Positions 23,463 to 26,097 of a DNA stretch of 32,418 nucleotides are shown one piece after another; position 1 is the stretch's first letter; every line of letters starts with the position of its first letter. The notes beneath the pieces are model-generated. The model made no database searches. It saw only the letters and a program-made list of their open reading frames with translations, and was not told where the DNA came from. The position numbers were made by a program, and so were the translations under genes. Source of the DNA: Vermamoeba vermiformis (taxonomy: Eukaryota); assembly GCA_045837725.1 (NCBI GenBank), contig JBEWZL010000180.1, positions 1 to 32,418 on the forward strand, written 5' to 3'.

Positions 23463-26097
23463 TTACAGGGAGGATTTACAAAGCAGGAGGTACTCGTTCA
23501 AAGTACGAATGATATTATTTTTGAACGTTTCCCAAGTCGTACCTTCGACCTTGGTATTTTTGAGTTGATTCAGATCCGCTTCAACCGTCAAAATGCATTC
23601 TTTTAGCGCGACTTTATCGCCATTTCCGCGGCACTGCCTTAACGCACGACTTCCACGGCTAATTTTTGCTAGTAGAGCTGCGAGCTTTTCGTGTTTTTTA
23701 CGTTCAATTTTCCATTGTTGCAGCGCTACTCCTGCTTCAATCAGCGCCTCGCATTCAACGCAACAATGAATCACTATAATAGGAAATGTAAATAAAATTG
23801 ATAAAATTGATAGTAGGAGATGACTACGTACTGAGATTTTTGTTCAATTCTTTCATGTCATCGAGGTACTTGTCTTGCAGTGGCATGTCAATGTGACACG
23901 GGCCATTCAAGTGAATAACTTTGCCGCACAGTTGACAGTATCCCTTCTCTTTTTCTTTCTTGAACGCGTTATGACATACTTGACACGTGTCAAATTGATC
24001 ACGTGGCGGCAAGTCAATGCCAGTTTCGATCAACATGTCACCGTCACCAACGAGTTTGTTGAAGAACAGTGACACGCCAGATGTGTTCTTATGATGCGTA
24101 ATCAAATGGTAACTGACGCTCTCCCATCGCACTGAGGCCCGTTCAATGTCACGTGACGAATCTGTCGGACGACGAGCACGCATTTCTTTGAAACTAGCCG
24201 TCAAGGTGTTGCTAATGCCTTCTTGTTGTGGCTCGCGCTTGCTTTTCCTACTCGGAGATTTGAGTTCTTTTTCGGGGACAGCAGTGGGTGTCATGTCCAC
24301 TTTCATCGGCTTTGACGTGTCATCTTCGAGGACGAATACGACTTCAGCGCTAGAGTCTTTTTTGACCGGCAAGACTTGCATTTTCATCGCAGGCTTTTTG
24401 AGATTGGTCGTCATCTCGTGTCCGAAATTGACCGCGAACATGTTGTTGGTCCAATACAACGAGATGACCGTTTCTGAAAAATAAAGTGTCAGCGGCTATT
24501 TATTTTGAATAGTAGCCTATATTGGAAGAATAATTAATGGCGTAACTTTGAAGATTACCTCCGTCTTCTTCCTCGGCCGAAGGTGCGACAAAGAGTACTT
24601 TGCCTTCGGTACCGGCAAGACCTACGAGGTACACATCGTTAATAAATCTGATAAAATACGTGTAGATGGCAGCTACATACCCGTTGATTCAGTGCCGAAT
24701 TTGACAGTTAAACCCTTTTCGATCCTCTCGGGTGGCAATTGACGCCATAACCCGTGTCGATTTTCACTTTCCACTCGTTCAAGCACAGTTGAGGTATTGT
24801 TAATGACCGTAACTAATACACTTTTCAATGCTTTCTAAGGCAAACGACTAATTAGTAATTTTTTCACGGGTAGATCCGATATGATCTTACTTTTAACTTT
24901 CTGACCCAGTCCGTATGATACACATCATCCATCTTTGTCTTCGAAGGTACTAATGGCGATGGCAACGCTTTGTTAACGATTTGCGCGTCTTTTGCGTCAC
25001 GTGCTGCGTGAATAGTGAACGTGACGGACCAGTGATCTGGCAACAAAACGAACGGCGAGCACTCTGATTTGTCGTCTTCTACGAGTGCATCGTAACGACC
25101 AGTACCACTGGATGTTGCCTTATAAGGAAATGAAATAATTAGATCAATTACTAACGGAGGCACAGTCCTTCAAAAGTGACTGGACTCGCGTGTCAAAACC
25201 CGCAAAAAATCGACACTTCCTCAAACAATTTGGTTATTAGGAACTAAATACTATATACTAATAATAGGCTAAAATAAAATTGATAAAATTATGCGGTTGC
25301 TCGCTTACTTGTTTTGAGGCCGTGATCTTGCGGTAAGGATTTTGCCACCTTAATGTGATCTCGCCGTACGAAGGATCTTCACCGCCATAGACTACTGAGG
25401 CACTAGTTCCACCAATGAACGCTGAGCTCGCGGTGCCGCATTCGATGGAACTCTTCGGCGGGATTTTTTCTGCTGGAAACTGTCGCCAGATTTGGAACGT
25501 GCCATGAAGTTTGATGTGGCGACGAATAAGTGCCTATAAATAATTAGTTATTAGTAATGTATATCGAATATTATAATTAGTACTCGCCTTATCAGTGTCA
25601 TTCACGATTTTGACAGTGACGGATCTGTTTGAAAGTCTAAATCAACGGTCAGAAATTACCCACGAATCTAATTTGTATTTTTTTTTTGTTATTACTTTAA
25701 CGCATTCTTCCAATCGTCCTCCAATGGTACGTATTTCTTGTTTTGATTCAGTCTTGCCATTAAACCATTGATCCAACTCAATTGTTCGGTTTCTGTCGCT
25801 GCCACGAGGCAATATATTCTATTCGTGCACTTTAATTCAATGCCATATTCGTTAAAGAAGCCGTAGTTATTTTCTTTGGGCTAGAAAAATTGGATGTCAA
25901 AAATTCGATTAACTGGTTAATTTTAATTAAATAATTACCTGCACGCTAACAATGTGCGAAATATCAATAAATCCCTTTGGTTCAGCATCGTTTTTGTTTT
26001 TAAAATAATATAGCTTGCCGTCTTGTTCTTTAAAATAGCGTGTCTTCCACAACTTGAATAATCCTTTCTCTCCTTGCTTTTTTAATACGCCTTCCAT
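23463..26097 (-). CDS. PH domain + two aegerolysin/Cry34(ET79)-like domains + degenerate FYVE-like Zn finger + helical tail
   Basis: ATG 26097; PH MEGVLKKQGEKGLFKLWKTRYF...EQLSWINGL. Repeat 1: KSVTVKIVNDTDKALIRRHIKLHGTFQIWRQFPAEKIPP...GGTSASVVY...ITLRWQNPY. Repeat 2: KSVLVTVINNTSTVLERVESENRHGLWRQLPPERI...FGTESTGLAGTEGKVLF...ISLYWTNN. Then CQVC...CQLCG...HLNGPC...CVEC. Splices are phase-consistent. Confidence 0.78.

Follow-up and report, generated by a model that had tools for sequence, protein, structure and literature searches.

In a window of 32,418 nucleotides (nt), the whole of the stretch analysed from contig JBEWZL010000180.1 of the amoeba Vermamoeba vermiformis, the minus strand holds a nine-exon gene (26097-23463) for a protein of 671 residues in which two tandem domains lie between an N-terminal PH domain and a FYVE-like zinc finger that is followed by helices. 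Judged by sequence profiles and by a predicted structure, the two domains are true homologues of the aegerolysin/Cry34 (Gpp34) family, whose solved representatives include a component of a bacterial binary toxin. The protein is read here, with moderate confidence, as a non-catalytic cytosolic membrane adaptor. The two domains were first described in a reading made from the letters of the DNA without database searches (hereafter the sequence-only reading), and the analysis that followed compares them with proteins of known sequence and structure, establishes the gene by RNA evidence and weighs several possible functions.

Two homologous repeats of the aegerolysin/Cry34 type

Each repeat consists of an N-terminal helix and a beta-sandwich. 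Repeat 1 (residues ~107-250; 24987..25721, minus strand) is encoded from the last part of exon 2 through exons 3 and 4 into exon 5, and repeat 2 (residues ~275-405; 24322..24914, minus strand) from the last part of exon 5 through exons 6 and 7 into the first part of exon 8. That the two are homologous to each other, as the sequence-only reading had claimed, is borne out by two comparisons. The best local alignment of residues 100-262 with residues 263-412 scores 113, while 300 shuffles gave a mean of 29.2 (standard deviation 4.6, maximum 55), which corresponds to a z of 18, and hhalign pairs the profiles of repeat 1 and repeat 2, taken as the halves of a tandem alignment, at 99.9% (E 4.2e-36) over 120 columns.

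Remote searches and structural modelling of the repeats used as a stand-in the stored protein P0001, which is 90% identical to the product of this gene. A phmmer search with residues ~101-413 of P0001 against 1.84 billion representatives returned 96 proteins at E<=1e-3, including 25 at E<=1e-10 and three at E<=1e-30; five of the best matches are fragments of the same protein from relatives. When the 96 relatives were scanned with Pfam, Aegerolysin was matched in 13 (E<=1e-3, best 8e-11) and Nakanori in one, and in the three relatives that were checked one by one the residues matched by Aegerolysin are those of the repeat domain. The cutoff of the Aegerolysin family (PF06355) is 22 bits, above which lies P0086 (30.5) and slightly below which lie P0023 (20.5) and P0025 (21.7). 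A hidden Markov model (HMM) of the local family finds the domain in 95 of the 96 relatives, with at least two copies in 41 and three copies in two. Across all six reading frames of the window, the only stretches that this HMM recognizes are four exon pieces of the gene, namely exon 3 (E 3.3e-3) and exon 4 (E 7.6e-21) in repeat 1 and exon 6 (E 9.8e-21) and the beginning of exon 8 (E 7.1e-9) in repeat 2.

The connection with Cry34 comes from a family profile in which the P0001 stretch was aligned with 33 two-copy relatives to give 34 tandem sequences. This profile matches Cry34Ab1 (PDB 4JOX) with an E of 8.5e-28 over residues 2-116 of the 123 residues of the chain. The match sits on repeat 2 (profile positions 168-282), and repeat 1 is connected to Cry34 via repeat 2 because hhalign pairs the two halves of the tandem alignment. 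More weakly, the profile also matches a truffle protein (8.8e-6) and an actinoporin, bryoporin (0.005), in the PDB. One relative, P0022, matches 4JOX by itself (E 5.6e-13). The resemblance to aegerolysins and Cry34 that had been proposed from sequence patterns is upheld by the profile match to 4JOX and by the Pfam matches among the relatives.

The predicted structure of the repeats points in the same direction. An AlphaFold model of the two-repeat stretch of P0001, built with the 34-sequence alignment, has a mean predicted local distance difference test (pLDDT) value of 85.8 and a predicted template modelling score (pTM) of 0.57, and it consists of two sandwiches of nine or ten strands with a helix ahead of each and a disordered linker between. 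Foldseek returned 36 PDB matches to the model at E<=1e-3. The top match is 4JOX (E 5.5e-8), with a template modelling (TM) score of 0.82 on the target, a root-mean-square deviation (rmsd) of 2.8 A and 20% identity, and it is followed by the actinoporins FraC, equinatoxin II and sticholysin II (E about 1e-6 for FraC and equinatoxin II). Further matches include ostreolysin A (6MYJ; E 4.1e-6, TM 0.63), Nakanori (5H0Q), IP-1A, pleurotolysin A (4OEB) and thermostable direct hemolysin. A comparison of the modelled fold with ostreolysin, Cry34Ab1 and actinoporins had been suggested together with the first description of the repeats, and its outcome, with Cry34Ab1 in first place, is that the predicted fold is not an unrelated one. 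The nearest clusters in the ESM Atlas, which serve as a lead only, carry Anemone_cytotox, Aegerolysin and Nakanori (score 0.87).

Domains flanking the repeats

The PH domain comprises residues 1 to ~95 (25755..26097, minus strand) and is encoded by exons 1 and 2, between which it is interrupted by intron 1 (25938-25881). Pfam PF00169, whose cutoff is 25.1 bits, recognizes exon 1 alone with 37.5 bits and P0001 with 49.2 bits (E 8.6e-13), in agreement with the earlier assignment of a PH domain ahead of the repeats. In a search of the PDB with the single sequence of P0001, the significant matches were all PH domains (TBC1D2, DAPP1, SBF1 and TAPP1). The first two strands carry the residues K7-Q-G...K18-T-R20-Y-F, which are aligned with the same positions of DAPP1 and fit the pattern K-x-G-x(6-11)-K/R-x-R-hydrophobic-hydrophobic. 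We take K-x-G...K-x-R-Y-F to be the pattern of PH domains that bind 3-phosphoinositides, and the PH domain of the amoeba protein would by this pattern be expected to bind such lipids.

Hydropathy analysis reveals neither a signal peptide, which the sequence-only reading had also reported to be lacking, nor a membrane span. The first 20 residues have a mean of -0.85, and the highest 19-residue window (1.55) is located inside the zinc finger. A cytosolic location of the protein is supported by the lack of a signal peptide and membrane span, and because the flanking PH and FYVE-like domains are of cytosolic types.

Repeat 2 is followed by a linker (residues ~406-458; 24163..24321, minus strand) that is predicted to be disordered. 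The C-terminal part of the protein was modelled by AlphaFold from the fragment P0003 with an eight-row alignment, which gave a zinc-free model with a mean pLDDT of 67.9, and the pLDDT is <50 for residues 1-58 of this model. The end of the linker bears an RxRxxT motif, RARRPT (residues 453-458; 24163-24180, minus strand), which is present in P0001, P0004 and P0009 and not in the distant orthologue P0010. Akt/PKB-type kinases have RxRxxT as their consensus, and such a site would suit a PH domain of the type that responds to phosphatidylinositol trisphosphate (PIP3).

The zinc finger (residues ~511-578; 23745..24006, minus strand) is split by intron 8 (23831-23774). Its putative zinc ligands are CxxC pairs at residues 518, 534 and 573, with H..CH between as the third pair. 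FYVE (PF01363) is the best Pfam family for the finger, with 21.5 bits (E 2.6e-4) for P0001 and 19.0 bits for P0004, which are values below the family cutoff of 27.8 bits. Binding of phosphatidylinositol 3-phosphate (PI3P) by FYVE domains involves the motifs WxxD, R(R/K)HHCR and RVC, and all three are absent from the finger sequence, in which KGYCQ takes the place of RRHHCR, no W stands ahead of the first CxxC and the last pair reads HCCVEC. The finger part of the P0003 model has a pLDDT of about 80-88, and the best Foldseek rows for the model are FYVE domains with E values of 0.055-0.6, none of which reaches 0.001. The closest of them is endofin (3T7L; E 0.055, TM 0.66, rmsd 3.1 A, 27% identity over 74 columns), and other rows are Leishmania LM5-1, Hrs and EEA1. 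Based on its sequence and the model, the finger appears to be FYVE-like in fold only, and it is not a member by the family's own tests. Binding of PI3P by the finger is unlikely because its score falls below the Pfam cutoff and the PI3P motifs are absent, and the first description of a FYVE-like finger with KGYCQ instead of the R(R/K)HHCR motif therefore stands.

A long helix continues from the finger and two more follow it in the C-terminal helical region (residues ~579-671; 23466..23744, minus strand); in the P0003 model these helices span residues 175-220, 223-241 and 248-271, and a further helix lies ahead of the finger. No Pfam family matched the C-terminal helices, the ESM Atlas gave no usable match for residues 455-671, and a search with the C-terminal 232 residues found homologues only in P0001 and a near-identical fragment (2 among 783 candidates). 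A rabphilin-type Rab-binding domain, in which a finger stands between two helices, was considered for the C terminus and dropped because there was no FYVE_2 match and no such structure was among the top Foldseek rows.

Conservation of the domain order

Two more distant relatives indicate that the architecture is conserved. P0006 (54% identical over 246 residues) contains the PH domain and repeat 1 and is cut off thereafter. P0010 (25% identical over 530 residues) contains repeat 1, repeat 2, the linker, a remnant of the finger and the helices in the same order, and two frames directly upstream on its metagenome contig encode the halves of a PH domain and then the start of repeat 1.

A tree of single repeats was inferred by a quick search from 67 rows, after one repeat-2 slice of <70 residues had been dropped. 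The labels repeat 1 and repeat 2 require 10 changes on this tree compared with about 22.7 when shuffled (0 of 500 shuffles were as low), and they do not form two clean clades. Each repeat of the Vermamoeba protein joins its counterpart in P0010, with support of 97 for repeat 1 and 93 for repeat 2, and because the repeats pair one-to-one the duplication is older than the split from P0010.

Relatives and fusion partners of the tandem module

Organism names were looked up for 20 of the 96 relatives, many of which are unnamed metagenome proteins. The named Amoebozoa that possess the tandem module are Nolandella, Soliformovum, Protostelium, Arcella, Heterostelium album and Dictyostelium firmibasis, and the module is also found in the alveolate Vitrella. 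Within the 96 relatives, Pfam places the module in one protein with RhoGAP (3 proteins), Exo_endo_phos (3), HEPN_Swt1 (3), IPK (2), PH (2), SH3 with TOCA-type HR1 (2), RhoGEF with C1 and CUE (1), PX with PH (1) and FH2 (1). The partners of the module are, as far as domain assignments from sequence indicate, of cytosolic signalling types.

The Exo_endo_phos fusions bear most directly on a possible ligand. They were examined in an alignment of seven proteins, of which three were identified by Pfam at E<=1e-3, one was named by NCBI and three were added as look-alikes. The profile of this subgroup matches Bacillus sphingomyelinase C (3.2e-17), human SMPD3 (sphingomyelin phosphodiesterase 3; 2.1e-13) and staphylococcal beta-hemolysin (5e-12), as well as Cry34Ab1 (1.6e-19). 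Since the same profile matches both the enzymes and Cry34Ab1, Amoebozoa have enzymes of the neutral-sphingomyelinase type with the tandem module at the N terminus. The arrangement of an N-terminal tandem module with a neutral-sphingomyelinase-type domain is seen in P0021, P0022, P0024 and P0071 (from Heterostelium, Nolandella and Dictyostelium firmibasis). Fusion to such domains ties the module to sphingolipid metabolism, and it provides the best available hint, taken from sequence, that the module may read a phosphosphingolipid membrane from the cytosolic side.

The fold also occurs beyond the eukaryotes named above. P0086, a protein of 798 residues from the actinobacterium Leekyejoonella antrihumi, carries the module twice, ahead of beta/gamma-crystallin domains, and on the quick tree the two copies fall into each other's clade and not with eukaryotic repeat 1 or repeat 2. 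Small, uncharacterised proteins of giant viruses that infect amoebae share the fold as well; the BFVD matches to model mf894a6edc219 include proteins of Pandoravirus celtis (165 residues, E 5.8e-7), Yasminevirus (176 residues, 7.9e-5) and Terrestrivirus (169 residues, 8e-4), and an ascovirus protein is found too.

Possible functions of the protein

In the adaptor reading, the tandem domains probably dock the protein on particular membranes. The aegerolysin-type pair would dock on a lipid head group at the cytosolic face, most likely that of a phosphosphingolipid with or without sterol, and the PH domain would add a second, phosphoinositide input. Because the tandem pair and the PH domain would each supply a lipid input, it is proposed that binding of the protein to a membrane requires both cues at the same place. 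The finger and the helices would hold or recruit other proteins, rather than bind PI3P.

Several points weigh against this reading. The identity of the ligand is a guess, and phosphosphingolipids normally face away from the cytosol, which means that a cytosolic reader of these lipids needs an extra assumption. The Pfam model PF06355 gave no match to P0001 or P0004 even at E<=10 and none to single exons of the gene, and no aegerolysin was matched in the PDB search with the single sequence of P0001. Family membership rests on the profiles, the relatives and the model, since Pfam and the single-sequence search miss the protein itself. That model was built on P0001 rather than on the exact product encoded in the window, to which P0001 is 90% identical, and its pTM of 0.57 leaves the mutual position of the two sandwiches uncertain. 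The finger is poorly conserved, with ligand pairs 1 and 3 missing from the distant orthologue P0010. Finally, the one aegerolysin-pair protein that has been studied, from Plasmodium, was shown to act by binding proteins with its HEPN-like domain.

In a more specific form of the adaptor reading, the protein would sense damage to phagosomes or lysosomes. The tandem repeats would read sphingolipid that has been flipped to the cytosolic face, the PH domain would restrict the protein to phagocytic or macropinocytic membranes, and repair or signalling factors would be recruited. The organism is a phagocytic amoeba. A cytosolic sensor of several lipids, for example at damaged phagosomes, had been proposed in the sequence-only reading, and fusion of the tandem module to neutral-sphingomyelinase-type domains in Amoebozoa lends indirect support to such a role. 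Studied members of the aegerolysin fold family bind sphingomyelin or ceramide phosphoethanolamine, according to a 2022 review, and in animal cells damage is reported to expose sphingomyelin to the cytosol, where neutral sphingomyelinases promote repair. However, the diverse partners of the module (Rho regulators, SH3 and IPK) suit general membrane targeting equally well, and a role specifically in sensing damage is considered unlikely. The proposal can be widened to a conjecture, to which only a small probability is attached, that the tandem module is a general cytosolic reader of phosphosphingolipids in Amoebozoa and alveolates which is wired to neutral sphingomyelinase, Rho regulators, inositol-phosphate kinase (IPK), SH3 and HEPN, and that the Vermamoeba protein is a coincidence detector of 3-phosphoinositide and exposed sphingolipid on injured phagosomes or macropinosomes. 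If true, the Vermamoeba protein would be the endogenous counterpart of the engineered, toxin-derived reporters of sphingomyelin and part of an ancient repair pathway based on sphingolipid scrambling.

Alternatively, the repeats could have lost lipid binding and act as protein-binding modules, in which case the protein would be a scaffold that contacts membranes via its PH domain only. The repeats have diverged too far to be recognized by the Pfam Aegerolysin model, and the sole intracellular aegerolysin-pair protein studied works as a receptor to which a lipid-transfer protein attaches with its PH domain. In that case, though, the partner is bound by the HEPN-like domain and not by the aegerolysin pair. 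Moreover, both repeats retain well the motifs that the family has in common with Cry34Ab1, and the sphingomyelinase-type fusion fits targeting to a substrate membrane better than it fits a scaffold. This alternative is regarded as improbable.

A function as the membrane-binding half of a two-part pore former, of the Cry34/Cry35 or ostreolysin A/pleurotolysin B type, is considerably harder to accept and is deemed very unlikely. The protein would have to be released without a signal peptide, to work with a MACPF or Toxin_10 partner and to target prey or the contents of phagosomes. In the pleurotolysin pore one MACPF partner is seated on two aegerolysin subunits, an arrangement that can be counted for a protein with two repeats, and the closest solved relative, Cry34Ab1, is a component of a binary toxin. 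Fungal aegerolysins are found in secretomes, as noted in the 2022 review. In the amoeba protein, however, the repeats have a PH domain on one side and a zinc finger on the other, and their relatives carry cytosolic signalling domains. No match to MACPF or Toxin_10 was found in the ten largest open frames of the window, a scan that was not exhaustive, and this also counts against a pore former.

Gene structure and expression

The coding region runs from an ATG at 26097-26095 to a TAA at 23465-23463 on the minus strand (23463..26097), and both ends are precisely where the sequence-only reading had placed them. Exons were joined by coordinates from stop-to-stop frames and splice sites read on the minus strand, and the result is an open reading frame of 2016 nt (671 codons plus stop). 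The splice sites and the open frame define exons 1-5 at 26097-25939, 25880-25696, 25636-25588, 25533-25309 and 25118-24891, and exons 6-9 at 24834-24681, 24621-24559, 24473-23832 and 23773-23463, all on the minus strand. Every intron ends in AG. Seven of the eight introns are of the GT-AG type (56-190 nt), and intron 3 (25534..25587, minus strand), which lies inside repeat 1, is a GC-AG intron of 54 nt with the donor gcgagt. The surrounding window has ~40% G+C and is eukaryotic, with introns.

Proteins that correspond to the whole gene are present in databases. Exon 4 alone (75 residues) as query found a single protein at E<=0.01 among 25 candidates, namely P0001, which has 671 residues like the spliced product. 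The 90% cluster of P0001 has five members, among them P0004, a 672-residue product of a Trinity transcript that is named Vermamoeba vermiformis by its source. In global alignments the spliced product is identical to P0001 at 605 of 671 positions (gap-free, 90%) and to P0004 at 625 of 672 (93%), from which it follows that the window stems from a Vermamoeba-type amoeba distinct from the sources of both proteins.

None of the sequencing runs listed by a search for the gene is recorded as RNA, and RNA evidence was taken from three RNA-seq runs that bear the same species label and from a fourth run, X1, whose kind is a guess. Reads of the three runs are 88-95% alike to the gene, from which it follows that the RNA stems from a relative, and the spliced contigs of X1 are 95-99% alike. 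RNA covers the locus from 23502 to 26127, and joints are found at all eight introns. The joints are clean at introns 1, 3, 5, 7 and 8. At introns 2 and 6, next to which the exon sequence diverges, the joints were found in reads in which a few letters are replaced; the X1 contigs skip introns 2, 3, 4 and 8. The joint at the unusual intron 3 (25531/25586) is present in X12 (3 reads), X13 (3 reads), X14 (1 read) and one X1 contig. It contains four ambiguous letters and can be placed in five ways, none of which gives GT, and the placement that keeps the frame is GC..AG. The locus is one expressed gene. A division of the locus into separate genes by RNA-seq had been foreseen in the sequence-only reading as the outcome that would undo the architecture, and it is not what the RNA shows, since joints at all eight introns connect the nine exons.

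Two predictions from genomic assemblies, P0008 and P0009, read through the equivalent of intron 8 (23774-23831), and P0008 reads through another intron as well; from their sequences they are mis-modelled fragments of the same gene. That these predictions are shorter and read through an intron is what could be cited for the long protein being an artefact of gene modelling at a locus with two or more genes, but this idea is contradicted by the RNA joints, by the transcript-derived P0004 and by the distant orthologue P0010, whose parts follow one another in the same order, and it can be dismissed with near certainty.

Several other frames of the window have Pfam matches, which are ankyrin repeats (4829-6346, minus strand), an F-box with leucine-rich repeats (11187-12395, plus strand), MORN repeats (18595-19068, plus strand), leucine-rich repeats (20788-21507, plus strand) and the C-terminal domain of a zinc-type dehydrogenase (22905-23333, plus strand). 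The dehydrogenase frame is convergent with the gene, and about 130 nt separate it from the 3' end of the gene. No Pfam match was obtained for the large frames at 9421-10062, 16857-17423, 26741-27247, 27608-28255 and 29113-30150.

Significance

The literature treats aegerolysins as small, stand-alone and mostly extracellular lipid binders of fungi and bacteria. The relatives described here suggest that the fold also serves as a conserved tandem module in cytosolic signalling proteins across a eukaryotic supergroup, which would place a further class of membrane-targeting domain, a new one, next to PH, PX, FYVE and C2, and the neutral-sphingomyelinase-type fusion gives a concrete hint about its ligand. 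If the ligand is a sphingolipid of the cytosolic face, phagocytes would have in these proteins natural probes and effectors of membrane damage and of the scrambling of lipids, and phagocytes of this kind are environmental hosts of intracellular bacteria and giant viruses. The database label of P0001 is 'hypothetical protein' and its precomputed families list PH only; because the repeats carry no database annotation, the family is invisible to routine annotation.

In the literature searched, nothing was found on the order PH, two repeats and FYVE-like finger, on amoebozoan fusions of the module or on a fusion to neutral sphingomyelinase, and the part of the 2022 aegerolysin review that is available mentions neither Amoebozoa nor multidomain forms. 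The architecture had been called unfamiliar in the sequence-only reading. This holds for the order of PH domain, double repeat and FYVE-like finger, which was not found in print, and does not hold for an aegerolysin pair inside an intracellular protein, which is known from Apicomplexa. As far as the literature was searched, the architecture, the wide occurrence of the module among signalling proteins of Amoebozoa and the neutral-sphingomyelinase fusion are apparently new, and the fold, the family and the tandem pair inside an intracellular apicomplexan protein are already known.

Comparison with known systems

Of the solved structures, Cry34Ab1/Gpp34Ab1, an insecticidal crystal protein of B. 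thuringiensis (13.6 kDa, 4JOX), is closest to the amoeba repeats, with which it shares the predicted fold and profile-level homology over nearly the whole chain. The motifs N-x-T, G-x-W, ES-x-G...GT-x-G-x-x-x-Y and NP-x-x-G are common to both in the profile alignment. Cry34Ab1 differs in that it is a single bacterial protein of 123 residues that acts extracellularly with a Toxin_10 partner, whereas the amoeba protein has two copies inside a eukaryotic protein of 671 residues that extends from a PH domain to a zinc finger. The fungal aegerolysins (ostreolysin A and pleurotolysin A; PF06355) and the actinoporin/Nakanori group have the beta-sandwich in common with the amoeba repeats. The fungal proteins differ from the amoeba protein in being stand-alone and of 15-20 kDa, and the amoeba protein is missed by PF06355.

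The finger of the amoeba protein has its best structural matches in the FYVE domains of endofin, Hrs and EEA1. It differs from them in that it lacks WxxD, R(R/K)HHCR and RVC, has H..CH as its third pair and scores below the Pfam cutoff.

The nearest precedent for the arrangement of the repeats is found in Apicomplexa, for which a form with a tandem aegerolysin and HEPN was described in 2013. The Plasmodium protein MAL13P1.321/PF3D7_1364000 (PfAegerolysin) and its relative in Vitrella resemble the amoeba protein in having an N-terminal tandem pair in a larger intracellular protein. Relatives that combine the tandem module with HEPN are also among the matches of P0001, namely P0081 (Vitrella), P0025 and P0067. 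In a 2026 study, PfAegerolysin is located at the inner membrane complex and its HEPN-like domain binds the PH domain of a VPS13-type lipid-transfer protein. The two systems differ in what accompanies the pair, which is a HEPN-like (Swt1-like) partner in the Plasmodium protein and, in the amoeba protein, a PH domain, a FYVE-like finger and helices.

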